Shown here: piece after piece, positions 15,680 to 55,180 of the stretch | Position numbering within the stretch: the first letter of the stretch is position 1 | Layout: every line of letters begins with the position of its first letter | Origin: Alphaproteobacteria bacterium | GTDB taxonomy: Bacteria; Pseudomonadota; Alphaproteobacteria; Rs-D84 | DNA: 64,000 nucleotides | Assembly: GCA_015062445.1 (NCBI GenBank) | Contig: SUUQ01000005.1 | Span: forward strand, 1,668 to 65,667 | Reading direction: 5' to 3' | Notes under the pieces: generated by a model | The model's database searches: none | What the model was told of the DNA's origin: nothing | What the model saw: only the letters and a program-made list of their open reading frames with translations | Translations under genes and position numbers: made by a program

Positions 15680-15765
15680 TAAACAAACAAGACATGCGGC
15701 ATGCATGTTGTAACGTCACAGAAAGGTTGGATTTCCGATATTTTTCGGAATACAGGGAGAGTTTA

Positions 15766-17910
15766 ATGAAAAGTCAAAAAATTGCAGATTCTGTCAAGAA
15801 TGCGGTCAGTACAGTATTTTTACTGGCTGGTGCTTTTTTTGTATGTTCAACATTGTTATCTATGCGTTCTGTTTTGGCGGATCCGATTGCGCCGGTTGAT
15901 GCAAATATGTTGTTGGGCCCCCAGTCTGGGCGGCGGGATGCAGCAACGGCACGTGCGCCTGGTCGGACCAGTCCACGAAATTCAGTATCACGTACGACTG
16001 TTGCCCGTACGGCTGTGCCTGGTGGTGTTACAAATGTGGCGCCTGCGGCGGGTCGTGGTAATACTGTGACGTCACGTGCGGTTACATCTCGTGCTGCGAC
16101 AAATCGTGCTGATGCGGCGGCGGGGCGTGTAAATTCAAATGGTTCACGTAATGTTGTTTCACGTAAAAGTGCGGTGACGACCCGTGCCAACGCGGTTGCG
16201 AACCGCGCTGTACGTGCCCGTACTGCAACAACAGACATGGCAAGTAATGCCCGTATTTCCCTGCAGGGCAGTGCGATACGCGGTTCCAAGACATCGACCG
16301 GTTCGTCATATTCCTATTTGACAGGCAAATTATACACTGGCAATTACTCAAATATCATCGATTCAACAACAGGTTTGATTTCAACAGACGCATTTAATAA
16401 TTGTATGGAAAGTTATTATACATGTATGGATGAAATTTGTACTGCGCGAAATGCGGCCCAACGTCGTTGTGCCTGTGCAGGTCGTGTTCGCGACTTTGCC
16501 GAGGCGGAAACAGCCCTGGAAACCGCCAACGAAGAATTGATTAAGGTTTCAGGTGAATTGGCCCTGTTAATTGCGAACAAGGGTAAAGATGTATCCGAAG
16601 CGTTCCAATTAACCGATGCGGAAAAGGTTATGAACTGTGTTTCCTGGCAAGATGTAACGAAAAAATACGGCATGGATTCCAGCGAGGCAATAGATTGGTG
16701 CTATAACCATGGAATTTATGGCAGTGGCGGCGGTCGTGTGTCGTCCTGTGCCCAGCCATCATATTGTTCTGAATCTGGCAATGATTTTGGCTTTAACGTT
16801 TCCAGTTTGGATGGCAGTGGTTCGGACATATTGGCATCCTTACAGGCCTGGGCTGATGCCAAAGAGCAAACATTAACGATTATCACCGATAACACAGACA
16901 CATTGTTGTCTGCGTTTGATAACCTGTCATCGGTTGTCAGTGGCATGGCCGGGATTGGTGGTGCATTATCTGTATCAGATACCTTGTCAGACTCGCTGGC
17001 AGAAACATGGGGGTATGAATTGTTTGAATATGCCCACAACAACGTTTGTGCCCGCGTGCTGGATTCGTGCTTTAACGGTATATTTGAGGCCTGCGGTACC
17101 CCGCCATCTGGCACCAAGTGCAGCAATGGTGCGTCCCAGTGTCCATATAATTACAACAGTCACATAACTGTAAACAACACTGGTACATACGAATTGAACT
17201 TTGTTAATGCGTCCAGTGGTTACAGTGCATCAAATTCTGCAACATGCTTTGGTTATACATCTGCATCTGGCGATCCGTATTCCAGTCTGCGTGGTCCTGT
17301 TGCAGATGCGCGCCGCAGCATTATGCAAAAATATGCACTGGACGCGAACGCCGACTGTGATGCGTATGGCGAACAGTTGCGTGCCACCGCGCAAAACATT
17401 GGTTATCAAAAGGTTGCCGCCCAACAGGCGCTGCAACAAAAGCGTCTGGAATTTGCCCGCGAAGAATCTGATTCTATATTATCCGCGGCGATTCAGGCCG
17501 GTACAAACTTTAACGAATGTATCAGTGAAATTTATGACTGTTATGAAACACAGTTGACATCAAATCCATCATGGCCGGATGCGCGTATCAGAACATATTG
17601 TTCCCAGATTGCGAACGTTCCGCATTGCTATGAAGAAATGATTTGTAATCCATCGACATCCCAGTTCAAAGCCGTTATTGACCAAGCGGATTCGACAAAC
17701 TGTGATAACACCCAGGATTACACAACAAACACATGTCGCAATATTGTTACATTGAACGAAATCCTGAACGGAACAGGTGCTGGCAATATTGGTTCTGACT
17801 TTGACCCATACACCAGCAAGGATTCTGCCACCATCCGCGAAGACTGTTTGATTGACAGCGGGGTTGACAGTATCCGAAAATGGTTTGAAGAAAATCGTCA
17901 GAAACAATAA
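15766..17910 (+). CDS. Large secreted protein: disordered Arg/Thr/Ser/Ala-rich N-terminal region plus a Cys-rich C-terminal domain (paralog 1)
   Basis: Start at MKSQKI with RBS 'acagggagag' and a signal peptide. Low-complexity segment 'SRAVTSRAATNRADAAAGRV...'. More than 30 Cys in the C-terminal 500 aa. 'C..Y..CMD..C...........RC.C' is shared with the next gene. Confidence 0.75.
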   Translation: MKSQKIADSVKNAVSTVFLLAGAFFVCSTLLSMRSVLADPIAPVDANMLLGPQSGRRDAATARAPGRTSPRNSVSRTTVARTAVPGGVTNVAPAAGRGNTVTSRAVTSRAATNRADAAAGRVNSNGSRNVVSRKSAVTTRANAVANRAVRARTATTDMASNARISLQGSAIRGSKTSTGSSYSYLTGKLYTGNYSNIIDSTTGLISTDAFNNCMESYYTCMDEICTARNAAQRRCACAGRVRDFAEAETALETANEELIKVSGELALLIANKGKDVSEAFQLTDAEKVMNCVSWQDVTKKYGMDSSEAIDWCYNHGIYGSGGGRVSSCAQPSYCSESGNDFGFNVSSLDGSGSDILASLQAWADAKEQTLTIITDNTDTLLSAFDNLSSVVSGMAGIGGALSVSDTLSDSLAETWGYELFEYAHNNVCARVLDSCFNGIFEACGTPPSGTKCSNGASQCPYNYNSHITVNNTGTYELNFVNASSGYSASNSATCFGYTSASGDPYSSLRGPVADARRSIMQKYALDANADCDAYGEQLRATAQNIGYQKVAAQQALQQKRLEFAREESDSILSAAIQAGTNFNECISEIYDCYETQLTSNPSWPDARIRTYCSQIANVPHCYEEMICNPSTSQFKAVIDQADSTNCDNTQDYTTNTCRNIVTLNEILNGTGAGNIGSDFDPYTSKDSATIREDCLIDSGVDSIRKWFEENRQKQ

Positions 17911-17998: not shown

Positions 17999-20146
17999 AT
18001 GAGAAAGTTATTAACTTGTTTTATATCACTGCTGGTTGCGTCACCGTATGCGGTTGCGGCTGATTCTGCTGTGTCCCGTGCATTGCCTGGGGCGACTGTT
18101 GGCACGACAACACAATCCGGCACATCACGTGTGGCTACGCGTGGCACGATATCGCGCAGTATACCCACAAATTCATCTAATGCTAATACTGATAGTGCTG
18201 AGCCAACATCTTCAACCAGTCGCACTGGAAATATAACACGTGCGCTCAGTGCGAATACTGTATCTAATTCTGCCCGCAGCAGTTTAGACGACACTGTAAG
18301 TACCGTTGGTCGTAACAGTCGTGTATCGTCTGCCAGTATCAACAGTAATCCAGTTGTTCGGCGCGCAGGGTTGGTTTTGCGTCCCTCTACAGCCGAGGTT
18401 GGCGGCCGCGCCACCATTGACGAAACAGGAACACAAACCGGTTCCAACATGGACGAAGCCATCAGAAAAGTGTCATCACGTGCGGCTGCAACTGCCACCC
18501 GTGAATCGATTGCAGATGCCACGGCTCGCCTGGAACAGACGGCTGCACTGAACCAATCGTGCCAGCAACAGTATAATGATTGCATGGACCAGTTTTGTGC
18601 TGTTATTGATGCCAACCAGGGGCGCTGTTCTTGTTCTTCAAATTTGTCGCGGTACACACGTGTTGAATCTGCGGTCAAAGATGCCAATACCCAGTTGAAC
18701 GAAGTTGCCCAGCGTATTCGCTATGTTGGCCTGTCTGCGGATGAAATACGCGCCATCATGAACGAGACCGAAGCCGAACAGGCGCTAAGTGGTGCTGTCG
18801 ACACATCAACCAACCGCAACATGTTGGAAGAAATCGAAGATTTAATTCGTGATCCTGTCTCAAACACATCGTATTCGGCTGACACATATACCAGTCTGGA
18901 TTTAGACCTGGATTTTTCATCAGATGCATCGGATTTATTTAATCTGGACTTTTTATCCAGTGGCACCAGTGGCAGTTTTTCTAACCTGCGTGGCACAGAT
19001 TTGTACAACGCGGCCAAGCGGCGTTGTAATTCAATCTTGACCCGTTGCAAGGGGGCAGGTGCCACCGTACAGCAGATAACAGGTAATTATGACCTGGCGA
19101 TTGATAAAGACTGTATTGCATACGAACAGGGGTTGACCAAGATGAATGAAACCCTGGTGTCGAATGTCCGCAGTGCGAATTTAATGTTGCAAAAGGCACG
19201 CCTGGCGGTATTGCAGAACAAAAACCAATACGATGCCAAGGGGTGTGTTGCGGCGCTGGAAAACTGTATGAAGGATGATATGGTTTGTGGCGATGACTAT
19301 TTCAAGTGCGTTGACCCAACCAAAAAATATATCGATGAAAATGGCGAAGTTGTATTGGGGCAAAACATATCGAATATCACCGCATTTATGTCTGGGTACA
19401 ATAACGCAATGATATCAGAAGATGGATATTTGAAAAATGCATACAGTGTCCAAAAAATATCGGATGACTCATGCAAGGCGGCCCCCACGGGTGATAAGGT
19501 CAAGATGGGGGGGAATGACGGTTCTTGCATGGTAAAGTATTTGTTGCAAAAAATTGGAACTGGTCAAAAGGTCACAGACGAGGGGCTCTGTCGTGCTGTC
19601 CTGGACAAGTGTCAGCGTTACACATACGATGCCAATGGCAATTATATGCCATACAATGACATTGTTGAAAACTATGTCCAGCGTGCCATGGTGAACATCC
19701 GTGCGGCCCAGTACAATATAATCTCGGACTATGCATCCACATGCATGGTTGATATTGCCAACTGTTACAACCAGCAGGTGACCCAGGTAAACGCATGGTC
19801 ATCAAATGCCAGTGTGACAAACATATACAATGTTATGCGTGGTGCGTGTCGCAATGTTGCGCTGACCTGTGCCTATGCGGTATTTGCCGCTGATACAACA
19901 AGTTGTCCAGCCAACAATGCCGATAAATGCATCAACAGCATATCTGAAATGTTCTATCAGTCATTATTGTGTCCAGACAATTCGACCTATGTTGCAACTG
20001 CGGTGGGTGCAGAGAACGTTGGCAATGGCCGTGAATATGTCAACGTCAATTGCAAATGTAATAATGGCTACGAGGCCTGGGGTAATGCGTGTCTGTTAAA
20101 ATGTACGGACAATAAAACACGCAATGCCTATGGTACATGCGAATAG
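17999..20146 (+). CDS. Large secreted protein: disordered Ser/Thr/Arg-rich N-terminal region plus a Cys-rich C-terminal domain (paralog 2)
   Basis: Signal peptide 'MRKLLTCFISLLVASPYAVAAD'. Region 'QSCQQQYNDCMDQFCAVIDANQGRCSC' is collinear with 'NNCMESYYTCMDEICTARNAAQRRCAC' in paralog 1. Extended -10 'TGATATAAT' at 17977-17985. Confidence 0.75.
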   Translation: MRKLLTCFISLLVASPYAVAADSAVSRALPGATVGTTTQSGTSRVATRGTISRSIPTNSSNANTDSAEPTSSTSRTGNITRALSANTVSNSARSSLDDTVSTVGRNSRVSSASINSNPVVRRAGLVLRPSTAEVGGRATIDETGTQTGSNMDEAIRKVSSRAAATATRESIADATARLEQTAALNQSCQQQYNDCMDQFCAVIDANQGRCSCSSNLSRYTRVESAVKDANTQLNEVAQRIRYVGLSADEIRAIMNETEAEQALSGAVDTSTNRNMLEEIEDLIRDPVSNTSYSADTYTSLDLDLDFSSDASDLFNLDFLSSGTSGSFSNLRGTDLYNAAKRRCNSILTRCKGAGATVQQITGNYDLAIDKDCIAYEQGLTKMNETLVSNVRSANLMLQKARLAVLQNKNQYDAKGCVAALENCMKDDMVCGDDYFKCVDPTKKYIDENGEVVLGQNISNITAFMSGYNNAMISEDGYLKNAYSVQKISDDSCKAAPTGDKVKMGGNDGSCMVKYLLQKIGTGQKVTDEGLCRAVLDKCQRYTYDANGNYMPYNDIVENYVQRAMVNIRAAQYNIISDYASTCMVDIANCYNQQVTQVNAWSSNASVTNIYNVMRGACRNVALTCAYAVFAADTTSCPANNADKCINSISEMFYQSLLCPDNSTYVATAVGAENVGNGREYVNVNCKCNNGYEAWGNACLLKCTDNKTRNAYGTCE

Positions 20147-27009: not shown

Positions 27010-28274
27010 TATTTTTTAATCCATCCTGCGGCGGTTCCGATTGCTTTTCCTGTTTTTTTGATGTTTCCCCAAATTGTGCCTGCGTCAGATTTTACACTGT
27101 TGTACAGTCCATCCATTCCGCCGCCGATATATTTCTTTAATTGTTCTTGTGTCTTGTCATAAATTTTGAACATCAAATACAGTGTTAATATTGCCGACAT
27201 CCATATCAAAGAATGTTGTCCAAAACCTGCGCCAGAATTTGCGATTTGTGGAACATTGCTGGCTGCACTGCCACCTGCGGCGACGACAAAAGTTGATACA
27301 TTTTCCATAAACAGTGCCCGTATAACTGCCAGATTTATACACAGCATAAATGCACACGCAATCATTGTCACGATTAATTGTTGCAGTGCCTTGGTAATGC
27401 CGCTGAATGCGGGCCAAACATCGAACCATTTATCACTGGGTTTTACAACATATGTCAGTACATAGAATGGATACAGAATTAATTGCATCCCGAAATTAAA
27501 TATCCCCTGGATAATCAGCAGTGCCATAAACAGATTGCTGCTGACGAATGTCAGTATTAAGATAATTCCTGTCACGATATTCATAAAATCTTGTCCGCCG
27601 TGCGGTATCAGTGTCATCAAACCTTTCAGTCCCTGGGTCAGACTATCAAATCCCCGCTTGATAATTTGATTGTTTGCATGTGACAGTTCTGATACGGGCT
27701 GTACCAGAAATTCACACGATTCCTGTGAAATCCAATCGTGTGCCAGAATGTCCGGTGGGCACTCAACTTTTGGTGGCTGTGCACCTGCTGCGTTAATTTG
27801 TTCTGTGATGTGACTGGTGTAAATCGCCCCCAGTTCCAAGAATGGATTAACCAACCACTGTGTTAAAAACACTGGTTTCATCTGCAACAAAAACAGTGCG
27901 GCAATAATTGCCCGCCCGCCTGATTTTAATGTGTTTTCGACAATCTGTGTCCCGGTAATTTTTCCATCGTAAATTTCGCCGCCCCCTGATATTCCCAGAA
28001 ATGACAGCCACTGTTTTGGAAAGTACATTTTTACCAGCGAAATCGTAATTGTAATCCCCAAGAATATCCAAACAAACGCATAGATAAAACCATTGCCGTT
28101 TCCGACAAAGAAATCATAAATTCCGGTTGCTACCAACATCATCGCATCCAGTACCATTGGAACGAACGGCGCCAGGTTCAGTGAATCGATGATATTTCCT
28201 GCATATGCCAAATCTGGGCACAGCATTGCCACCGCCAAACACAACCCAAAAAAAACTTTTTTCAGTAAATACAT
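27009..28274 (-). CDS. Polytopic membrane protein, member D (first gene of the 4-gene operon)
   Basis: Signal peptide 'MYLLKKVFFGLCLAVAMLCPDLAYA'; 'PFYVLTYVVKPSDKWFDVW' motif; tail 'KKTGKAIGTAAGWIKK'. Confidence 0.6.
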   Translation of the reverse strand: MYLLKKVFFGLCLAVAMLCPDLAYAGNIIDSLNLAPFVPMVLDAMMLVATGIYDFFVGNGNGFIYAFVWIFLGITITISLVKMYFPKQWLSFLGISGGGEIYDGKITGTQIVENTLKSGGRAIIAALFLLQMKPVFLTQWLVNPFLELGAIYTSHITEQINAAGAQPPKVECPPDILAHDWISQESCEFLVQPVSELSHANNQIIKRGFDSLTQGLKGLMTLIPHGGQDFMNIVTGIILILTFVSSNLFMALLIIQGIFNFGMQLILYPFYVLTYVVKPSDKWFDVWPAFSGITKALQQLIVTMIACAFMLCINLAVIRALFMENVSTFVVAAGGSAASNVPQIANSGAGFGQHSLIWMSAILTLYLMFKIYDKTQEQLKKYIGGGMDGLYNSVKSDAGTIWGNIKKTGKAIGTAAGWIKK

Positions 28275-28342
28275 TCTCTGTTTTTATTTTTATCTTTTCA
28301 ATTATATCACATTTTGTGCAAAATATGATATACTTAAAAACG

Positions 28343-29632
28343 ATGAACCGATTAAAAAAATTTTGGATTGTATTTTTATCGTTCTTGCCATGGGCGGCGG
28401 GTGCGGCTGTTCCGTTATTGGTTGGCGGCATTGCAGGTGTCGGGGTTTTGGCGGGATTTTCGATATATCGCACAGCGGTTCCGGTCAGTCCAACAGATGC
28501 GTATCAGTTTTTTTCCAGTTGTTGGACATGCCAAATGTTTTCTGACATCATGGCAACAATGTCTGGTATATTGCCCCGCATTTATCATGCCTTGGGTGAA
28601 ACGATTGTTCCGTTCACAATAATGTTAACGGCGATATGGCTGGCCTGGAAATTGGTCAGCAATTTGATGAACGGGAAAATGGAAGATGGTTGGTCATTGA
28701 CCAGTACATTTGTGAATCACATGGTGCGACTGGGGATTGTTTGCATATTTTTATTGGCACCCCTGCCACGGTTGATATCAGATGTTGCGATTACACCGAT
28801 TTTCAATATTGGCATGTCGCTAAATCGTGTGGTTGTACATGACGATAATTTTGACATGTGTGTTATATCTACTGCGTTGGCAGATCCTGTGTCTGTTGAT
28901 TCGGCTGCGGCGGATTCTGGTGCATTTTCACCGACCATGCGTCATAATCTGGCATGTGAATTGGCGGGCATTCATCAAATGACAGGTATGGGCATGACAG
29001 TTGGCTGGACGATGCTGAATATGGCATTTGATGCAGATTATATGCACAAGATTTTATGGGATGTTCCTATTTTTCCAAACATCATATTGTTTTTTTCGGG
29101 TTTATTGATAATGGTGCTGTTTTTTGCGGCATTGCTGCCCATACCGATATACTTTTTAGAAATTTTTATCACATTATCACTGGATTTGGTAATGTTGCCG
29201 TTTATGTTGTTGGCATGGTTGTTTCAGGGCTGGCAGATATCTTTGGCGGGTGCGGGCAAAACGATTCGTGGGATTATTGACGATGTAATAAATGCGACCT
29301 TTGCGTTGGCGATAACAGGTGTGTTTGTCACGTTTGCGATAATGTTCCTGGATGCGATATTTGGCGATTGGAATGGGGTATCTGTTTTATCGACTGCCTT
29401 AACTCAAAACGATTCGAAATTTATGATGGATGCCTTGATGATGCGCAATGACAGTTTGGTAACCATTATATTGATGGGTATATTTATTGCGATGTTTATG
29501 ATAATGATACCTGCATTATCCAAGACCTTGTTCAACGTACAAATGTCGACCCGATTCTATGACACGACCAAAAAGAACATTGAAATTGTATGGGAAAACC
29601 TGAAAAAGTGGTACTCCGCAATAAAAAAATAA
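28343..29632 (+). CDS. Polytopic membrane protein, member E (divergently transcribed paralog)
   Basis: Start chosen at MNRLKKFW (signal peptide). The track ORF 28205.. overlaps member D. 'PFMLLAWLFQGW' motif; tail 'ENLKKWYSAIKK'. Confidence 0.6.
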   Translation: MNRLKKFWIVFLSFLPWAAGAAVPLLVGGIAGVGVLAGFSIYRTAVPVSPTDAYQFFSSCWTCQMFSDIMATMSGILPRIYHALGETIVPFTIMLTAIWLAWKLVSNLMNGKMEDGWSLTSTFVNHMVRLGIVCIFLLAPLPRLISDVAITPIFNIGMSLNRVVVHDDNFDMCVISTALADPVSVDSAAADSGAFSPTMRHNLACELAGIHQMTGMGMTVGWTMLNMAFDADYMHKILWDVPIFPNIILFFSGLLIMVLFFAALLPIPIYFLEIFITLSLDLVMLPFMLLAWLFQGWQISLAGAGKTIRGIIDDVINATFALAITGVFVTFAIMFLDAIFGDWNGVSVLSTALTQNDSKFMMDALMMRNDSLVTIILMGIFIAMFMIMIPALSKTLFNVQMSTRFYDTTKKNIEIVWENLKKWYSAIKK

Positions 29633-31230: not shown

Positions 31231-31258
31231 TTCCCCCAAATGGGGGGATTTTTTTTGT
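31231..31258 (+). terminator. Rho-independent terminator
   Basis: Hairpin 'cccccaaatggggg' followed by a T8 run. Confidence 0.75.
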
Positions 31259-31326
31259 TGATATATTTTTCTGCTTGCGTGCGATTCGTGATTTGTTCTA
31301 TGATTGCATCAGGAAGGAAAGGAATT

Positions 31327-32640
31327 ATGCGTCATTTAACATTCAGTATATTGGCTGTACTGTTGATTGTGCCTGGTATTGCATCGGCACGAATGCCGGT
31401 TGTAAATGTATCATCTGGTGGTGTGTCTGCACGTTCTGCATTTGGCGAAGATGTCAGTGCATCTGTATCTGGCGGTACATTGCCATCTGTTGCGTCGCCG
31501 TCGGTATCGACACGTACACGTTCGGTTGTTTCACGTCCTGTGACTGCATCGGTTGCACCGGCCAGGACCGTGGACCGTGGGGAACAGTTTGTTGCATCGA
31601 ATGATGTTTTGGTTCCTCGCCGCCCCAGCAACGATTTATGGGCGAAAAGCGATGGTGCCTTGCGTATGCCCAGCCCCAGTGAATTTTCTGTTATTCGTTC
31701 TGACGGTGTTTTGCCCGAAGAAAGCTTAGATAACGCATATGTTGCGTCTGTTTCGGCACGTCCGGCTGCGCCTGTTGCATCGATTTCTGAGTCTGTGTCG
31801 GAACTGGATAATCAAATTGCACGTTTGATTGAGTTGCAAAAGCATGCCAATGATAATGCACGTTCTGTATCGCCCCGTGTTGCGCCTGTGGCACCGGCGA
31901 TGCCGGCTGCACCTGTTGTTGCAGCTGTGGAACCTGCTGTGCCGGCTGTGGTTGATTTGCCTGCGTCGCCCCGTGTTGCAGATTCTGATGTATCGCTGCG
32001 TCGATTGGTTGTTCCGATGTCAGATGATGTTGTTGTTCGCAGTGTTGAAAAAAATATTTCGCCACGTATTGCTGCGGTTCGTGATGATATGACCAAGATG
32101 AGTCCTGCAGAACTTCGTCGTGCATTCAGAAAGACGTTTTTATCAGAAAACAAACATCTGTCCACATATTCGATTGATGATGGCTTTGATGTTGCCAGTG
32201 ATATGTCTGCATCTATCGAAGGTTTTACAGCCCGTCGTGATTTGTCTGAAACTGGTGGCATTCGTCCGTTGGAAATCAAGATTAAATTTCGCAACGAAGA
32301 TTCTGCATTATCACGTGAAAACTATAATTTGTTAACTGAATATGCCGGCATTGTGGTCAGCAAACCAACCCGTGCCATCCAGGTTGCCATCCCCCAGGTA
32401 ATGACCACTAACAAGGATGCTCGCAAATTGGCGGCCCGCCGCCTGGCGATTGTTGAACAGGTTTTAACCGACAACGGTGTGTCCCAGCAGCGAATTGTGC
32501 CGGTTTTATCCAGTCGTGACGAACAGGGATTTGTATTGCGTATAATCTCTGGTGATCAGTATGAAACCCTGACCCAGCAACAACGTGATATATTTGGTGA
32601 TACGATTAATAAAAAGACCTATAAAAGTATGTCGTGGTAA
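31327..32640 (+). CDS. OmpA-family protein with a long Pro/Ala/Val-rich linker
   Basis: Signal peptide 'MRHLTFSILAVLLIVPGIASA'; PAV-rich repeats; the C-terminal 'ARKLAARRLAIVEQVLTDNGVSQQRI' resembles the OmpA_C peptidoglycan-binding motif. RBS 'ggaaggaaagg'. Confidence 0.55.
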   Translation: MRHLTFSILAVLLIVPGIASARMPVVNVSSGGVSARSAFGEDVSASVSGGTLPSVASPSVSTRTRSVVSRPVTASVAPARTVDRGEQFVASNDVLVPRRPSNDLWAKSDGALRMPSPSEFSVIRSDGVLPEESLDNAYVASVSARPAAPVASISESVSELDNQIARLIELQKHANDNARSVSPRVAPVAPAMPAAPVVAAVEPAVPAVVDLPASPRVADSDVSLRRLVVPMSDDVVVRSVEKNISPRIAAVRDDMTKMSPAELRRAFRKTFLSENKHLSTYSIDDGFDVASDMSASIEGFTARRDLSETGGIRPLEIKIKFRNEDSALSRENYNLLTEYAGIVVSKPTRAIQVAIPQVMTTNKDARKLAARRLAIVEQVLTDNGVSQQRIVPVLSSRDEQGFVLRIISGDQYETLTQQQRDIFGDTINKKTYKSMSW

Positions 32641-43394: not shown

Positions 43395-43575
43395 CGTCAC
43401 GAGATATCCCGTTTCACCCCGTGCCAAAAGGTTGATTCTTGGCACCCCCAACGGGAAACCGAGTGAATAAAAACCGCATGAGTTGCGTTATTAGCAACGA
43501 ATGACTGGTTTGCGTCACAAGGTTCGCCGTTTCACCCCGTGCCAATTGTTTGATTCTTGGCACCCCCAACGGGAA
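43395..43575. repeat. Two ~63-nt direct repeats (43395-43457 and 43513-43575) comprising the 3' 18 nt of tRNA-Glu plus 45 nt of its 3' flank
   Basis: 'cgtcac..gtttcaccccgtgccaa..ttgattcttggcacccccaacgggaa' occurs twice with a 118-bp period. The second copy is the genuine tRNA 3' end. Confidence 0.85.
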
Positions 43576-44542: not shown

Positions 44543-44926
44543 ATGCAGATGACAGATATAGTAAATGAACTTGTAAACATTGCACAACAAGAATTGGTAA
44601 AACATGCACAAAGATTGGATCGTTTGGTTGCGTCAATGAATGCGGTCGATTTTGACCCTGGTGTAGAATCGGTCCAATCGGTCCGTGAAATGATAGAAAA
44701 TCAATCGAAACTGTATGATGTTGTTTTTGATATGCTAAAAACCGCATTGGAACAGCATCGTAATTTAATGTTGGCCATGGGCACCATGAATCAGTCTGTC
44801 CAACAGGATATCAATGCCACTACCGATTCAATTGATGCGATGTTGCATGCACTTGAACAAATGTCCAAGGCCGCTATCGAATCAATTGATTTGACGTTGA
44901 GTACACTTGAAAAAATGTCGCGTTAA
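44543..44926 (+). CDS. Hypothetical protein (127 aa, helical)
   Basis: ORF with RBS 'acaggagatgcag'. No family recognised. Confidence 0.4.
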   Translation: MQMTDIVNELVNIAQQELVKHAQRLDRLVASMNAVDFDPGVESVQSVREMIENQSKLYDVVFDMLKTALEQHRNLMLAMGTMNQSVQQDINATTDSIDAMLHALEQMSKAAIESIDLTLSTLEKMSR

Positions 44927-44967: not shown

Positions 44968-45210
44968 TCCGTGACGTATACCAAATAAAAAATGCCCCCT
45001 GTGGGCATTATTTATTTTGGTTGGGGCGCACACAGGGGAGTGGGGATGTTCCCCACTAGTGTTTTGGGAAATCTGTGATTTTTCGAAACACGTACAAAAC
45101 ATTGATAATGTTTTGGTGTACAATCACTGTAACTGATTGTACAAATCGTGACGAATAGCAAAATAAAAAATGCCCCTTGTGGGCATTGTTTTATTTTGGT
45201 TGGGGCGCAC
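44968..45210. repeat. Two ~65-nt direct repeats (44968-45031 and 45145-45210): the tRNA-Gln terminator hairpin plus the tRNA 3' 14 nt
   Basis: '..cgtgacg..aaataaaaaatgcccc(c/t)tgtgggcatt.ttttattttggttggggcgcac' occurs twice. Only the second copy continues into the full tRNA. Confidence 0.85.
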
Positions 45211-45270
45211 GGATTCGAACCATGATAAAGAGAACCAAAATCTCTTGTCCTACCATTAGACGACACCCCA
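45197..45270 (-). tRNA. tRNA-Gln (anticodon TTG)
   Basis: A 74-nt cloverleaf on the minus strand: TGGGGTG/CGCCCCA acceptor, anticodon stem AGAGA/TCTCT with loop TTTTGGT, T-loop TTCGAAT, CCA encoded. Resembles E. coli tRNA-Gln. Confidence 0.8.
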
Positions 45271-45506
45271 AAAGCAACATTGATTATAATTATCTTTTGT
45301 AAATTTGCAATAACAAATTTTTGTTTGGCTAAAACCGTGATAGGTTTCTGGTTATGTCGCACAAAAACGGTGGTCAAAAAACGACATTGTTCCTGGTGGG
45401 TATTTTATCACAAATCTGGCAAAAATCACAGAAGAAAAATGTCGTTTTTTGACCACCGTCAAAAATCGACATTGGCAAAGGTATATAAAACCCAGGGAGG
45501 ACAAGG

Positions 45507-46445
45507 GTGAGGGCTCTTTTTTACAGTGCAATTTTTTCGATTTTATGCACACCGTGTTTTGCAGACGTATTGCCATTGGATGATGCGTTGCGTTCCACAT
45601 ATCGTGCGTGTGTTGGTATTGACGACCAGTTAAACGATTTGCGTCGCATGGCGGGCATCAACACTGCGATAACTGCGGCTGGTACTGCGGCAGGGGCTGG
45701 TGCGACTGTGGTTGGTATTGTTAAAACGTCCAAGGATAAAAAGGCAGAATCGCTAGAGGCCATATTAAATGAAATCAAAGAAATGACACAAAATTCTGCC
45801 CCGATGACCACAGATGAAATTGACAGATTTATGTTTGAATTTAATGCGTACTATGAAACTGCGCTGAAAAGCACTGATTCCATACAATCAGAACTGGACA
45901 AGACGGTTGCCCAGTCTAAAAAGTTGGGTAATTGGCGAACAGGTTTACTGGCGGGCGGCACAGCCACCAACATTGCCGGTGCGGTTATTGCCAGTTCGAA
46001 CAAGGTTGACGGTGATATTTTTGTTCAAATAGAGCTGTGTAAAACATCTGTTGCGAATTTGCGCAACTCGATTATCCAGGCCCGTCTGAACGGCCAAGAC
46101 ATAACCGAGGCCGAGGAAATCATCCGTTTATGTGGCGAATATGATTATGCAGATTTGTCGAAAATTAATACCAAGGCCCGTGGTGCGACAATTTCGTCTG
46201 CGATTGGTGCGACCACTGGTGCGGTTGGTACGGTACTGTCGGCCAGTGCGAATTCCCAGAAAGTGCGTGACGATAATACAGACACGGGCAAACATCGTGA
46301 AAAGAATCTGAACACGGCATCGAATATAATGGCGGGTGCGACGACTGCGGCCTCTGCGACGGCGACCATATTTAATGCGACCCAAATTGGTGCGATACGT
46401 CGTGTATCAGACATTGCAGAAAAATGCACGGAGGTATTGAAATGA
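45507..46445 (+). CDS. Secreted helical Ala/Gly/Thr-rich protein (312 aa)
   Basis: Signal peptide 'MRALFYSAIFSILCTPCFA'. Repeated 'AGTAAGAGATVVGIV'-type segments. Its stop overlaps the next start (ATGA). Confidence 0.6.
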   Translation: MRALFYSAIFSILCTPCFADVLPLDDALRSTYRACVGIDDQLNDLRRMAGINTAITAAGTAAGAGATVVGIVKTSKDKKAESLEAILNEIKEMTQNSAPMTTDEIDRFMFEFNAYYETALKSTDSIQSELDKTVAQSKKLGNWRTGLLAGGTATNIAGAVIASSNKVDGDIFVQIELCKTSVANLRNSIIQARLNGQDITEAEEIIRLCGEYDYADLSKINTKARGATISSAIGATTGAVGTVLSASANSQKVRDDNTDTGKHREKNLNTASNIMAGATTAASATATIFNATQIGAIRRVSDIAEKCTEVLK

Positions 46446-49400
46446 AGAAAGTAATAACGACATTAATATGTTTTTTACTGACATTTTCTGCAAACGCAGC
46501 TGATGTTTTGTTGAAACTGAATTCTGAAACATTGGGTGCATCTATCAGCAGTCATTTTTCCGCAGAAGATGCAGTAAATGTAGCCATTCGTGTTCGAGAT
46601 TTGTTGGAAAAATCACCAGATGGCATTTCTGCTGTTGATATGTGGTCTGTTTGCACGGCCGGTGGCATAAAAATAGAAGAAAACTCGGGCAAGGCCAGAT
46701 GTCAGGCATTTTTACAATCGCTGGTTACATTTTCTGACAAAAATTATGTTCGTGTATGCAATGCGAATGAATTCAAGAAAATCTTGGATACAAATATTCG
46801 TGACATATCAAAATGCGAGCGGGAATTCTTTAACAAAACAAATGTTCAGTTGGTCCAAGCGGTTGAATTGGCCAAGATGTATGCGCGTGTAAAATGGAAC
46901 GATGACGGTGTTGTTTGCAGCAATACATACAACCAGGCCGAAAATGATGATTGGTTATCATGTAAATCGCTAAAAACTGGTGCGTTTTACGAATTTAAAT
47001 TTGACGATGTAAAAGAGTCGATTGACAACAGGATTCAAGATGATGTTCGTGACAGTGTGTGCAGACTGTACGATGGTTCCTGGTCTGCGGGTGATTACTG
47101 TGCATCTGTAACACCAGAAACCTGTGATAAAATATCTGATGGTTCCAAGACACTTGGTGTCCAGGTCGAATGGAAATCTGACAAATGTTATCTGTTGTTC
47201 CACCAGATAAGTGATTTCAGTGAAATCAAACAGGGCTGTGGTATTGATCCGTTAACGTTCTGTCGCAAACGTGACTTGCAGTTGCAATCTAATTTGGGGT
47301 TATATGATTTGTTGCAACAGCATGTATCTGACAAGTGTGGAACCCCCATGCACGATGTTCGTTGTGACGCAACATTTAAAACATTTCGTGGAACCAGTGG
47401 TGGTTGCAACCTGGGGATATTTGCACAAAAAGATGATATTATTTCATGCTATGCGGGCAATCAGCAGATAGATTTCTTGATTGACGATGTTAATGAATGG
47501 AGTGATAGCCGTGCCCAAGCAGGTCAACAGGGGGTGATGTGTATCACAGAAAACGGTACATTTGACGGCAAAAATTGTGTTGCCCTGAACGAGCAGGCGT
47601 GCACTGCATTGCAACAAGAAAACGCAACAGTTTGTCCAGAATGTAAAGAGGTTGAATGGGACCCAGGGCTGGGGTTGTGTGTTTTGAAATCTGCCCGTGC
47701 CATGACCAGAATCGACAAAGCCGTTGAATTTACTACGGCGGCTGGTGTTGTTGTTGCAGGTGTTGCCGTTGGTGTGTTGACTGGTGGTGCGGCGGCGCCA
47801 GGGGTTTGGGCAATTGTGGCCAAAACAGGAAGTGTATTGTTATACGCAGGTGGCGCAGCCGTTGTTGGGTCTGAAGCGGTTATGACATATGGAATATGGG
47901 ATCCGTTTGTAAAAGCTGCAAATAAATGTATTTTAGAAAATGATGCCAAATGTGCAGAAGATTTGGTTGTTCGCGAACTGAATTCTATGCAAAGTTATTC
48001 CGAAGATTTGACAGATAACGAAGCGGCTGCACTGGATGAAACATTCAAACATCTGATACAGATGATACCAGAAGATTCTGAATTCTGGACAGATTTCTTT
48101 GGAAATCCTGAATTCTTTGATTGCACTGTTCCTACCGATCCACAAACATGCGTTGTCAAAGAAAGTGCACAGTTCTGGCAGGTTGCAAGAACTGCTGGAA
48201 ACACCATGATGATTGCGGGTGGCGCACTAAAGATGCTGTCCAATATGGGGACGATATTCAAACAATCCAGGGAACTTCTGCGTCTAAGGGTTGAAGCAAT
48301 GCCACGGCATAAAAATATCGGGGTTTTGGCCCAGGTTAATGCATGGGGAACGCGTGGGATATCAATGCCCAATCGGATAATTCCAGAAGTTGCTGCAAAG
48401 CTGGGGTTGAACAATGTCACAACGAATTCGGAACTTGTAAAGGCGATGGGCTGGAAAGTTGGCCAAGAATTGATGTGGAATCCTACTACGCAAACAATCG
48501 TCCAGGGTGCGGCTATGAATCCATATGGTTTGGTGCCAATCGGTATTGGCACAGGTGGCTTGATTATGGTTCCAGACGATACTGATTTTATTGTTCAGCG
48601 TTCTTGGGCACAGGAATCAAACGAAATCCCAGAACCCGAGGTTATTCTTGATGACATTGTCATTGATGATACGATTGAACCACTGCCAACGGATATTGTG
48701 TTCGATGACACAGTGATTGTTGTGCCGCCGCGTAAGGTTCCAACGGTAAAACCTGGGGCAGACGAAATTCCAGAACCCGAGGTTATTCTTGATGACATTA
48801 TCATTGATGATACGATTGAACCGGTTCCCAATAATTCTGATTTCAATTCAGATCAGATCTATGTCTCGCCGATTCCGGTGTCTGCCGATGCGGGGCGTAA
48901 TGTTCAACCGTATTCTGTTGAACGTTCTGGCGGACGTGGTTGGATTGCCGCGGCAACTGTTGCGGGGCTGGTCGGAACAGGTGTACTGGTCGGTACATTG
49001 GTTGGCAAAGATCGCAATGATTCCAATAAATCAAATACCAACACATCAGGCAATTCTGCACTGGAATCGCTGATGGTTGTGGCAGGTGGGGTATTGGGAT
49101 ATGTAGACAACAATGAAATTACATTAATACCACTGCCAACTGTATTAAATACATACGCACCAATCGTGGATATAAACAATCGTGCAGTGGTTGTGGTGTT
49201 GTATCGTGGGTATAATCTGCCGTATTATCTGGATGCATCGGCTGGCACATGGGTTCCATTGCTGGGGATTGGTGCAAATGGCGGCTGGTTTAATACGTAT
49301 CCACAAACACCAACAACCGGTATATCTAAATTGGATGATATTACCCAGCTGTTAAATCGCATGCTGATGCCACGCACGGTTTCGCCATATGTTGGCCAAA

Positions 49401-49564
49401 ATGCGTCCGGGGTCCAGTTCCCATCAGCATCGACATTGGCATATTCGACAATAAATGCCATGTTCCCATTAGGTGTTGTAACTTCGTACAATGGCACGTT
49501 CAGCCCATCTGACCAGAAATTGTATGACAACAATTATCAAAAGATGCGAAATCTGTTTAACTAG
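46442..49564 (+). CDS. Large (1041 aa) secreted/membrane-anchored Cys-rich protein with an internal 47-aa tandem repeat
   Basis: Signal peptide 'MKKVITTLICFLLTFSANAADV'; more than 35 Cys in the N-terminal 420 aa; hydrophobic segments 'AAGVVVAGVAVGVLTGG' and 'WIAAATVAGLVGTGVLVGTLVG'; acidic repeat 'EIPEPEVILDDI(V/I)IDDTIEP' occurs twice. Confidence 0.7.
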   Translation: MKKVITTLICFLLTFSANAADVLLKLNSETLGASISSHFSAEDAVNVAIRVRDLLEKSPDGISAVDMWSVCTAGGIKIEENSGKARCQAFLQSLVTFSDKNYVRVCNANEFKKILDTNIRDISKCEREFFNKTNVQLVQAVELAKMYARVKWNDDGVVCSNTYNQAENDDWLSCKSLKTGAFYEFKFDDVKESIDNRIQDDVRDSVCRLYDGSWSAGDYCASVTPETCDKISDGSKTLGVQVEWKSDKCYLLFHQISDFSEIKQGCGIDPLTFCRKRDLQLQSNLGLYDLLQQHVSDKCGTPMHDVRCDATFKTFRGTSGGCNLGIFAQKDDIISCYAGNQQIDFLIDDVNEWSDSRAQAGQQGVMCITENGTFDGKNCVALNEQACTALQQENATVCPECKEVEWDPGLGLCVLKSARAMTRIDKAVEFTTAAGVVVAGVAVGVLTGGAAAPGVWAIVAKTGSVLLYAGGAAVVGSEAVMTYGIWDPFVKAANKCILENDAKCAEDLVVRELNSMQSYSEDLTDNEAAALDETFKHLIQMIPEDSEFWTDFFGNPEFFDCTVPTDPQTCVVKESAQFWQVARTAGNTMMIAGGALKMLSNMGTIFKQSRELLRLRVEAMPRHKNIGVLAQVNAWGTRGISMPNRIIPEVAAKLGLNNVTTNSELVKAMGWKVGQELMWNPTTQTIVQGAAMNPYGLVPIGIGTGGLIMVPDDTDFIVQRSWAQESNEIPEPEVILDDIVIDDTIEPLPTDIVFDDTVIVVPPRKVPTVKPGADEIPEPEVILDDIIIDDTIEPVPNNSDFNSDQIYVSPIPVSADAGRNVQPYSVERSGGRGWIAAATVAGLVGTGVLVGTLVGKDRNDSNKSNTNTSGNSALESLMVVAGGVLGYVDNNEITLIPLPTVLNTYAPIVDINNRAVVVVLYRGYNLPYYLDASAGTWVPLLGIGANGGWFNTYPQTPTTGISKLDDITQLLNRMLMPRTVSPYVGQNASGVQFPSASTLAYSTINAMFPLGVVTSYNGTFSPSDQKLYDNNYQKMRNLFN
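48623..48822 (+). repeat. Intragenic near-identical 59-nt direct repeat (48623-48681 and 48764-48822)
   Basis: 'gaaat(c/t)ccagaacccgaggttattcttgatgacatt(g/a)tcattgatgatacgattgaacc' occurs twice with a 141-nt period. Confidence 0.9.
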
Positions 49565-49569
49565 CTATA

Positions 49570-49599
49570 AAAGTGCCACATCCGTGGCATTTTTTTTGC
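49570..49599 (+). terminator. Rho-independent terminator
   Basis: 'gccacatccgtggc' followed by a T8 run. Confidence 0.7.
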
Positions 49600-49718
49600 A
49601 TCAGAAAGAATTGTTGCAAAAAAATACAAATTTTTACTTGAAAAAAAATTATTAAAACATATAATAATTAAGAAATTTAATAAATTTCCAACACGGACCC
49701 ATTATACAGGAGTTTACA

Positions 49719-55100: not shown

Positions 55101-55150
55101 TCTTTTTAATTGAACGTGCCCGTCATTGGCGACCAAAATTCCGCAAATAA
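52118..55150 (+). CDS. RND-family (HAE1/AcrB-like) efflux transporter
   Basis: 1010 aa, 12-TM architecture with two large periplasmic loops. The N-terminal 'RRPITTLMFVLVWVVLGLVSF' is typical of AcrB/CzcA. Confidence 0.9.
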   Translation: MLKFFVRRPITTLMFVLVWVVLGLVSFPNMNIERTPSVDFPMVTSTFIYPGASPAELESQVVKRAEDAISEVSELKKITSYIYENSAMVMAEFNLGVNVNDKASEVKTKLDALTSEFPSDMEQPVVEKLNVLQESVVDIVLRGADARDLEEYVDDHLSTKITGISGVASVSVFGGRERAIRIAMNPDAMAAHGVTIMDVVSALGAHNLNVPGGKIETSVSSSNVRFIGEFASVSQIADLQITTAEGDQFKLSEIATITDSARDIETGARYNGEPVVIASVVKSSDGNAINISREIQKRMPEFESDLRATFPNAEILIAADSSIAVSDETDSTINGIILGVIFTVLVLLAFTRNWRSTVIAGVVIPASLIAGFFFMDGSGFTINAMTLLAYSSALGTLVSNAIILIESALQEMHSGKNPIDAAIDGTKKVAVSVLAGVGTNVVVFLPLAFMGGIVGQFMVQFGMTVVYLTLLSLMFSFTLTPMMIAQFLRLTGGKKRSKSEQTPSATSHSDNNSWLYRWYKYQSAHPWRVIGLVAVIFVASTMLMRFVGNEFSPTTDANEITITARAPMGATFEKSESIAQQLEQRLSQFPEVSATTVKIGDQGLQNIDITVELVDVSDRDISDKMLAQKMLPVISDIADAEIQIRAGEAHSAGSTSDLVLNVFGDDDALRESYASKIIDIINQIPEVQSAVRAQQTPALETQFVPDQDKMNFWGVQNAYAGTILRTALYGNDDYKYKENGEEYPIILEFAKPFKTASFFDNVYVNSQKGMIPLSALGEIKMERATPDIRRENKNRLTEIDINIGKSTMGPVQMKIQSELDKIDWEYGYHAEFGGMSEHQAESSSEIGKAFLLATILTFMLLAAIMNSLAHPFTIVTSILTSFTGVFVLMFLSGATMNIGAMLAFVMLVGLVVNNNILVLEPTINRINNGEDMHTALWTELKDKRNMVLMTSIAVIAGMVPQLWSIDGMKVAMGAVMIGGMFASLVFTFTLTPALFFLIERARHWRPKFRK

Positions 55151-55180
55151 AAAAATCCCCGTTTGGGGATTTTTTATTTT
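55149..55180. terminator. Bidirectional terminator (RND pump / pyk)
   Basis: 'aaaaaaatccccgtttggggatttttta'. Confidence 0.75.

Follow-up and report, generated by a model that had tools for sequence, protein, structure and literature searches.

Among the described systems that come closest to the locus treated here are the MIB–MIP pairs of Mollicutes and the PE/PPE pairs of mycobacteria, the latter of which are thought to act at the cell envelope. The locus consists of two overlapping genes, here called ORF1 and ORF2 (ORF, open reading frame), within a 64,000-nucleotide (nt) stretch of contig SUUQ01000005.1 from an alphaproteobacterium of the order Rs-D84; this whole stretch is referred to as the window. 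NCBI records, which derive from a metagenome-assembled genome (MAG), label both products "hypothetical protein". ORF1 and ORF2 represent two protein families without recognisable relatives in the libraries searched, and the locus is one chromosomal copy, inherited vertically, of a cassette of two genes, found so far only in Rs-D84. The cassette is undescribed so far and, as sampled, restricted to this lineage.

Enterousia (order Rs-D84) has genomes of <1 Mb that lack the means to synthesise amino acids, nucleotides and lipids (PMC12306168). Standard importers that take up sugars, amino acids or peptides are also missing from Rs-D84, which has been proposed to depend on partner cells, and its genomes encode many unexplained membrane proteins (PMC12306168). 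These bacteria are widespread in human and livestock guts. Several 4-kb cassettes kept in a tiny genome, together with families that have no recognisable relatives and an ectodomain that evolves fast, make the cassette a prime candidate for the machinery of this dependent lifestyle.

All comparisons with known systems are conceptual, and the locus qualifies as a member of none of them. Like the cassette, MIB–MIP pairs are two-gene surface or envelope modules carried in several copies by a tiny, host-dependent genome, and a serine protease is one partner class here too. However, no sequence or fold similarity to them was detected, the upstream gene here encodes a helical protein of 312 amino acids (aa) instead of an immunoglobulin binder, its usual partner is polytopic and Cys-rich instead of being a protease, and the hosts here have an outer membrane. 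PE/PPE proteins rely on type VII secretion and are devoid of a Sec signal peptide. They share with the cassette the occurrence as many paralogous, co-transcribed pairs with a conserved helical part and very variable, sometimes enzymatic parts, although no homology links the two and the conserved and variable parts are here separate coupled proteins, each with its own signal peptide.

In holin–endolysin pairs and the type 10 secretion systems that derive from them, as here, an upstream gene with multiple hydrophobic helices overlaps the gene for a secreted protein, and the downstream protein is endolysin-like in three paralogous cassettes (L056, L058 and L062). Conversely, ORF1 has 312 aa, a cleavable signal peptide, four conserved Cys and no holin match in PHROGs. 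This identity was rejected because the partner in the window is a 1,040-aa membrane protein without a hydrolase domain and ORF1, by its size, signal peptide and missing PHROGs match, does not fit a small holin. The combination of a Cys-rich exported protein with a variable centre and of a small helical protein beside a polytopic one recalls TraN and VirB5/VirB6 (TrbJ/TrbL), respectively. TraN, TrbL/VirB6 and VirB5/TrbJ were rejected since they gave no Pfam or NCBIfam match and no PDB match by profile or Foldseek; other type IV secretion genes are not present near the cassette. TonB-type and proline-rich spacers resemble the low-complexity, Pro/Glu/Asp/Val-rich linker of variable length between the folded domains of ORF2, but only in composition, as this linker runs between membrane segments, may be cytoplasmic and is not accompanied by a TonB C-terminal domain. 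Three further candidates were set aside: two-partner secretion (type Vb), because ORF1 is predicted to be all-helical and neither protein has a relevant Pfam match; anti-phage defence, because PADLOC matches neither ORF1 nor ORF2; and a toxin–immunity pair, because ORF1 is the conserved member and not the variable one.

Distribution of the cassette and variation of its partner gene

Relatives of ORF1 number more than 1,400, and a scan of GTDB species representatives (one genome per species) found 375. Among the best 80 of these 375, almost all are from Ca. Enterousia or unnamed gut Alphaproteobacteria MAGs, recovered from ruminants, horses, chickens and humans, and two records carry other labels. 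Several genomes contributed two to four cassette loci each, and a genome carries several copies, at least two to four. The ORF2 family comprises at least 310 clusters at 50% identity in an exhaustive profile search (E ≤ 1e-30), with members of 250–2,546 aa that share a core at about residues 100–620. This search superseded a word-indexed one, which gave merely 16–17 relatives as low-complexity matches crowded its list. Directly after 86 of 88 ORF1 homologs comes an ORF that bears a signal peptide and is mostly Cys-rich, and the same 4-nt ATGA overlap joins the two genes in nearly all of these 86 cassettes from other genomes. The partner varies in length from 234 to 1,819 aa across cassettes. 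No third gene family co-occurs with the pair, the next commonest neighbour being present in 11 of 82 loci.

The two genes differ in how far they are conserved. In pairwise comparisons of 62 complete cassettes, ORF1 is on average 61.5% identical, as against 29% for the N-terminal domain (N-domain) of the partner, which is the predicted ectodomain, and 22% for its C-terminal domain (C-domain). The Spearman correlation between ORF1 and N-domain identity is 0.15, and 45 pairs combine an ORF1 identity of at least 75% with an N-domain identity below 45%. For instance, at the syntenic locus the window groups with L003 by ORF1 (about 84%) and by the C-domain (64%), whereas the two N-domains are only 29% identical; the N-domain of the window is closest to that of L001 (63%), and that of L003 has no match above 36%. 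Because the N-domain is discordant with both ORF1 and the C-domain, the ectodomain must either diverge very quickly or be swapped among alleles or cassettes.

In other cassettes the partner is of another kind altogether. It is a trypsin-like peptidase in L056, L058 and L060 (Pfam Trypsin, 24–42 bits for a cut-off of 20.6), and in L056, L058 and L062 it joins d0, the first helical module of ORF2, to a phage endolysin/tail-lysin-like domain (phrog_873, E = 2e-12). Several other partners are small proteins that contain Cys; the short partners of L012, L020, L039, L074 and L078 have no recognisable domain, and in the extensions of the largest ORF2 family members Pfam finds only sub-threshold SPOR, DUF6782 and TraI_middle. 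Since ORF1 paralogs are coupled to such different secreted partners, ORF1 is the constant element of the cassette and the downstream gene the interchangeable one.

The chromosomal position of the cassette is conserved. The order tRNA-Gln(UUG) (minus strand), ORF1, ORF2, MarR, TolC, MFP and RND is kept in L001, L003, L004 and L010, where tRNA-Gln lies 150–300 bp upstream of ORF1 and ORF1 identity runs from about 82% down to 61%; homologs beside tRNA-Gln, which the initial annotation had proposed to look for in relatives, are thus found. With the 38 other genes of the window as reference, ORF1, ORF2 and four sub-regions of ORF2 have z-scores from −1.45 to +0.98 for synonymous-codon likelihood, GC content at third codon positions and overall GC content, and the GC profile along the window is flat, with no step. 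The window is core chromosome and includes the genes for PPDK, PBP1a, UvrD, ValS, GyrA, an RND efflux operon, pyruvate kinase and YidC, as well as a D-Ala-D-Ala carboxypeptidase with a SPOR domain. The initial annotation had suggested horizontal acquisition and a check for deviating composition, and had set against its own suggestion the finding of core-like codon usage together with conserved synteny. Both are found, the cassette staying within about 1.5 standard deviations of the window genes, and acquisition is refuted. Moreover, searches of 72,556 plasmids, 50,697 phage genomes and IMG/VR found no relative of either ORF1 or ORF2.

Three observations on individual cassettes may be added. 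Two short-partner cassettes stand in tandem between gyrA and tRNA-Glu in L058. The partners in L012 and L078 end in a Cys-flanked FxFDD(I/V)CN that echoes the signature of the Cys-rich ORF2 modules described below. In L017 (5566–8992) the ORF2-type gene breaks off behind its first hydrophobic helix in an unusual tail rich in Cys, Trp and Tyr, and similarity to the M- and C-domains continues downstream of it; the gene could be frameshifted, split or a pseudogene, or the assembly could be wrong.

Organisation of the transcription unit and of the two proteins

The features of the cassette are collected in Table 1. The ATGA overlap and the Shine–Dalgarno sequence can be read directly at the junction of the two genes, in agreement with the translational coupling initially annotated, and ORF1 has a Shine–Dalgarno sequence of its own (GGGAGG, 45495–45500). 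Counted from its ATG, ORF2 encodes 1,040 aa, one fewer than the 1041 first given, and the end of the operon as initially drawn (49599) takes in the intrinsic terminator. Since this terminator follows ORF2 and is itself followed by a promoter-like site for MarR, ORF1 and ORF2 form a transcription unit of their own. On the other side, ARAGORN and Rfam both confirm the adjoining tRNA-Gln(UUG), whose minus-strand promoter-like site (45283–45310) is kept in orthologous loci. An inverted repeat located 50–140 nt upstream of ORF1, with 22/22 perfect arms by blastn, is partly conserved and only in the closest relative, L003; it may be a candidate operator or a 5' leader structure of the cassette. The words AAAACGACATTG and AAATCGACATTG, which are related to the inverted repeat, also occur near the region upstream of ORF1.

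Table 1. Coordinates of the cassette, its signals and protein regions in the window, and of short-partner cassettes in other loci (prefixed L).
Feature	Coordinates	Strand	Description
tRNA-Gln(UUG)	45197-45270	-	ARAGORN and Rfam; divergent from ORF1; conserved syntenic landmark
Inverted repeat upstream of ORF1	45367-45392 / 45434-45459		26-nt arms, 96% complementary, 41-nt spacer
ORF1	45507-46445	+	GTG start, 312 aa
Coupling junction ORF1/ORF2	46430-46445	+	GGAGG at 46430-46434, 7 nt, ATG at 46442, ORF1 TGA at 46443-46445
ORF2	46442-49564	+	ATG at 46442, TAG stop at 49562-49564, 1,040 aa; variable subunit of the cassette
ORF2 signal peptide	46442-46507	+	Residues 1-22, MKKVITTLICFLLTFSANA|AD; from sequence and hydropathy
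d0 helical module	46511-46795	+	Residues 24-118; domain hidden Markov model scan of 86 partners; pLDDT 73-97
Cys-rich alpha/beta modules A and B	46796-47701	+	Residues 119-262 (A) and 263-420 (B); ectodomain core, pLDDT >90
Hydrophobic Ala/Val/Gly-rich helical hairpin	47714-47878	+	Residues 425-479; predicted TM1 and TM2, 6-residue uncharged loop
Conserved helical region and weakly hydrophobic segment	47879-48250	+	Residues 480-578 (2-4 Cys) and 579-603
Cys-free variable region and hypervariable low-complexity linker	48251-48937	+	Residues 604-832; holds the duplicated acidic module
Duplicated 141-nt (47-aa) units	48618-48758, 48759-48899	+	Carry EIPEPEVILDDI(V/I)IDDTIEP
Last TM helix (predicted)	48938-49009	+	Residues 833-856; basic residues before, acidic after
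C-terminal alpha/beta domain	49022-49561	+	Residues 861-1040; pLDDT 85-97; conserved, but only in a subset of members
Intrinsic terminator GTGCCACATCCGTGGCATTTTTTTT	49573-49598	+	3' of the ORF2 TAG; closes the two-gene transcription unit
MarR promoter-like site	49638-49665		After the terminator; 11/12 match
Short-partner cassettes in a deeper-branching group of the order	L056:3833-7114, L058:8001-11774, L062:8001-9814, L060:8001-10108		
Short partners	L012:338-1858, L020:378-1241	-	
Short partners	L078:8960-10153, L074:8933-9760, L039:6454-7158		

ORF1 is a conserved, Sec-exported, disulfide-containing helical protein with uncharged segments of membrane-spanning length. Its signal peptide comprises residues 1–19, and its four invariant Cys are at positions 35, 178, 209 and 307. 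Four uncharged segments of 22–24 residues (49–72, 143–164, 226–248 and 270–293) consist of Gly, Ala, Ser and Thr to 64–78% and are the most conserved parts of the protein, and variation is concentrated at residues 73–136. The initial description as a 312-aa secreted helical protein is confirmed for length and signal peptide; the all-helical character comes from an AlphaFold model of low confidence (predicted local distance difference test, pLDDT, 54), in the confident parts of which the four invariant Cys fall. ORF1 has no match in Pfam, NCBIfam, PHROGs, PADLOC or PDB sequences, a Pfam scan of 31 diverse members revealed no recurring family, an ORF1 profile found nothing among PDB sequences, and a profile–profile comparison detected no relationship between ORF1 and ORF2. 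A Foldseek search with the ORF1 model returned only generic helical bundles, including MakA and AhlB (E of about 0.6–1.4, TM-score ≤0.2), which carry no weight given the quality of the model.

ORF2 begins with a canonical signal peptide, as annotated, and an equivalent N-terminus is present in every partner protein. The d0 module always comes first after the signal peptide and is common also to short partners with unrelated domains. Modules A and B are homologous to each other (hhalign probability 97.5%, E = 5.8e-12), share the signature [YI][ED]FxFDDVxE and contain about 15 Cys that are at least 90% conserved across 85 family members. Residues 71–413 contain 22 Cys and residues 496–570 another four, which confirms the annotated Cys-rich region at about 400 aa; the ectodomain has about 20 conserved Cys, as opposed to none in residues 604–832. 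Hydropathy also recovers the two Gly/Ala/Val-rich hydrophobic segments initially reported, at residues 424–483 and 831–856. The first corresponds to a hairpin of two putative transmembrane (TM) helices, delineated by hydropathy (1.6–1.95) and charge analysis, which is modelled with low pLDDT as expected for an isolated membrane segment. An invariant Arg sits in the weakly hydrophobic segment 579–603, which may cross the membrane as a third TM helix or be re-entrant. The C-terminus was described as Asn/Tyr/Gly-rich, and it does contain 11% Asn, but it forms a conserved, confidently folded alpha/beta domain and is not of low complexity.

The distribution of charge and Cys in ORF2 fits four TM helices, the residues after the third segment being basic. 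In the topology predicted from this pattern, the spacer would be located in the cytoplasm and the two large domains outside it, and by the positive-inside rule residues 604–832 are probably cytoplasmic. An alternative topology would have three TM helices and a cytoplasmic C-domain. An AlphaFold run with an 85-sequence alignment gave pLDDT >90 for d0, A and B, for residues 480–560 and for the C-domain, and Foldseek found no match to this confident model in PDB or BFVD. Searches of Pfam, NCBIfam, PHROGs and PADLOC with ORF2 gave nothing above noise. Against PDB sequences, a full-length ORF2 profile matched solely in the Pro-rich linker, hence by composition, and profiles specific for the N- and C-domains found no relative.

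Proposed function in the cell envelope

The signal peptides on both proteins, the Cys of the ectodomain and the charge pattern of four TM helices probably place the cassette products in the envelope. A possible function, favoured here tentatively and as a somewhat less than even prospect, is that ORF1 serves as a scaffold or carrier for interchangeable partners, with which it forms a complex in the envelope for dealing with partner cells. ORF1 and its partner would be produced at a fixed ratio and come together in a single envelope complex, in which ORF1 would be the common membrane-associated component and the partner would supply the specific activity. ORF2 in the window would then act as a fast-evolving, disulfide-rich recognition or contact ectodomain directed toward cells or surfaces on which the bacterium depends. 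A surface or effector system had already been suggested in the initial annotation, and it is still the best functional reading, although the arguments that now speak for it (multiple copies, a mosaic ectodomain and enzyme partners) are not those on which it was first based.

Several points weigh against this proposal. A physical interaction between ORF1 and ORF2 is only suggested by their translational coupling, and the modelled structure of ORF1 is of low confidence. The bacterium has an outer membrane (TolC, RND), so an ectodomain anchored in the inner membrane would be periplasmic and not exposed at the surface, and no route across the outer membrane was identified for the ORF2 ectodomain. 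The fast divergence of the ectodomain could stem from relaxed constraint instead of diversifying selection. Finally, d0 covaries with ORF1 only slightly more than other modules do (rho 0.25 vs 0.09–0.20) and two protease partners have no d0, so the idea that d0 is the docking handle for ORF1 is weak.

A more far-reaching version, which is unlikely as it stands, would make the cassette a hitherto unrecognised two-component system for contact or delivery. A membrane-inserting ORF1 would present or translocate interchangeable cargo, which includes lysin-like proteins, proteases and the giant Cys-rich proteins, whose double-module fold would be new and serve in recognition, and the bacterium would thereby attach to the cells on which it lives and breach their envelope, and recombination between cassettes would diversify target specificity.

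Housekeeping maintenance of the envelope is a doubtful explanation as well. Peptidoglycan hydrolases and trypsin/HtrA-like proteases commonly act in the periplasm of the bacterium itself. ORF1 could be a periplasmic or membrane adaptor for envelope-remodelling proteins (a lysin-like hydrolase, a protease and ORF2-type proteins), which it would position or regulate and which would work on the wall and membranes of the producing cell, as during growth or division, with the several copies arising by sub-functionalisation. The partners do include a peptidoglycan-hydrolase-like domain and trypsin/HtrA-like proteases, the predicted topology would place the ORF2 domains in the periplasm, the neighbourhood is core and rich in envelope genes (PBP1a, the D-Ala-D-Ala carboxypeptidase with a SPOR domain, and YidC), and one large ORF2 family member has a weak, sub-threshold SPOR match. 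However, housekeeping envelope machines are normally single-copy, slow-evolving and widely distributed, whereas this cassette occurs in several copies per genome, has a mosaic ectodomain averaging 29% identity and has been found in one order only. Nor would a genome of <1 Mb be expected to retain several paralogous 4-kb cassettes for one such task.

The hydrophobic parts of the two proteins also allow for a membrane-active two-component toxin or translocon, which seems rather improbable. The ORF1 helices and the ORF2 hairpin would insert in a target membrane as a pore or conduit, either to kill competitors or to extract nutrients, and the Cys-rich ectodomain would be the receptor-binding part. 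The four uncharged ORF1 helices of 22–24 residues, 64–78% Gly/Ala/Ser/Thr and most conserved in the protein, would suit such a role, as would the Ala/Val/Gly-rich hairpin of ORF2; hairpins of this composition occur in pore-forming domains. Lysin-like and protease partners are typical envelope-attacking activities, and the host is without lipid and nucleotide synthesis and standard importers (PMC12306168). Conversely, no similarity in sequence or fold to pore-forming toxins was found, MakA and AhlB being matched only at the insignificant scores given above and from a low-confidence model; the hydrophobic segments of ORF2 would normally stop transfer in the inner membrane of the producer; and neither an export route nor an immunity gene is evident.

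It is very unlikely that the cassettes encode nutrient-uptake channels or receptors, in which Cys-rich periplasmic modules would bind substrates and the TM helices of ORF2 with the helices of ORF1 would form the conduit, replacing the standard transporters lost by the lineage. The missing importers and the many unexplained membrane proteins of Rs-D84 (PMC12306168) fit this idea, as do the several diversified copies per genome and the polytopic nature of ORF2 (3–4 TM helices). Soluble enzyme partners, whether protease or lysin-like, do not fit when paired with the same ORF1, and the TM helices of ORF2 are too few for a transporter, an energising component is missing and no transporter family shows similarity.

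If ORF1 does act as a scaffold for interchangeable partners used toward other cells, the cassette would offer a concrete molecular handle on finding the partner organism and on enrichment and co-culture. The ectodomain could be used as bait and ORF1 as a conserved marker, while the lysin and protease partners would offer activities to assay, and both the fold of the protein and this kind of modular envelope system would be new. Should the role be one of housekeeping instead, two large uncharacterised families would still have been added, with at least 310 ORF2 clusters (50% identity) and more than 1,400 ORF1 relatives.

The duplicated module and the tRNA-Gln neighbourhood

The 47-aa tandem repeat noted in ORF2 is real in that an acidic module is duplicated, but it has only two copies and most of its length has diverged. 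The first 64 nt of the two units match at 61/64 positions, far beyond chance, and the remainder is about 44% identical, which makes 95/141 identical positions overall; Tandem Repeats Finder makes no call at the two-unit repeat. Because near-identity is limited to these first 64 nt, the repeat is an old two-copy duplication in which the first 22 codons are near-identical, and not a multi-copy tandem array. Length change between strains by slippage, as had been envisaged, finds no support in the 90% cluster of ORF2, in which three variants on 15 contigs are uniformly 1,040 aa (a small sample of short-read assemblies), nor in the presence of just two copies that are one-third diverged. One of the 11 substitutions among these variants (P732H) falls within the conserved part of the repeat unit. 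A phase- or length-variable contingency locus was rejected on the same grounds of copy number, divergence and the missing Tandem Repeats Finder call.

Across the ORF2 family the linker measures 36–263 aa, and many members have in-frame repeats of their own, such as EARKA arrays, PVPTPT arrays and two copies of PGGGTTPGGNEN; the acidic motif DDDIEIPDDD of some relatives resembles the module of the window. Since the linker is length-variable and repeat-prone throughout the family, it has been shaped by duplication repeatedly over evolutionary time. The duplicated acidic module would thus be the form that a length-variable spacer takes in this lineage, and not a phase-variation device.

The att-like scars reported beside tRNA-Gln are genuine direct repeats of 50 nt with 94% identity (44983–45031 vs 45161–45210, enclosing about 130 nt). 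They lie 3' of the tRNA, however, whereas the operon faces its 5' end, so that they are on the side away from the operon. The sequence upstream of ORF1 is not repeated downstream of ORF2, and a scan of the neighbouring ORFs against Pfam, NCBIfam and PHROGs revealed no integrase or other mobility domain. An island integrated at the tRNA was therefore rejected: composition does not shift, no repeats bracket the operon, no mobility domain was found in the scanned neighbours and four relatives have the same gene order.

The interval between gyrA and MarR is inverted in L002, contains extra genes in L001 and has cassettes beyond the tRNAs in L058; this plasticity is local rearrangement within one lineage and not import. 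The model of the initial annotation as a whole, a surface or effector island acquired at tRNA-Gln whose length varies by repeat slippage, is highly improbable: the operon does adjoin a tRNA with real 50-nt duplications of its 3' end and terminator nearby, the gyrA–MarR region is rearranged in some relatives and the linker is repeat-prone across the family, but composition and codon usage are indistinguishable from those of core genes, synteny is kept in at least four other species, the repeats are 3' and the operon 5' of the tRNA with none bracketing it, neither mobility domains in the scanned neighbours nor plasmid, phage or viral relatives were found, and the family is found in one bacterial order only, with all 15 near-identical contigs encoding 1,040 aa.

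In L001 (2566–6936), three genes that are extra relative to the window stand between an APH-like gene and tRNA-Gln, and they encode an autotransporter whose repeats are Chlamydia-PMP-like, a protein with DUF7424 and a GIY-YIG nuclease. Because of these genes, the region upstream of tRNA-Gln is the plastic one.

The window contains a similar duplication at tRNA-Glu(CUC), where a 3'-end duplicate of about 50 nt is 94% identical (43409–43457 / 43527–43575). At both tRNAs the duplicate comprises the tRNA 3' end and the terminator hairpin and lies 118–178 nt further downstream. These duplicates are absent in the syntenic relatives L001, L003, L004 and L010, and they may be what is left of tandem tRNA copies that have decayed, or of old integration and excision events. 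A hairpin, AATGCCC-N5-GGGCATT, with AT-rich flanks occurs at three intergenic sites (44991–45009, 45169–45187 and 55144–55180) and looks like a shared bidirectional terminator motif. Elsewhere in the window, four large ORFs of 466–738 aa (15694–17910, 17999–20146, 28205–29632 and 31240–32640) have no Pfam match at E ≤1e-5. Between the two tRNAs, the ORF at 44543–44926 encodes a 127-aa helical protein with a 54-nt in-frame tandem duplication (44812–44865 / 44866–44919, 80% identity) and a weak PHROGs match to a tail tape-measure family (E = 0.0011).

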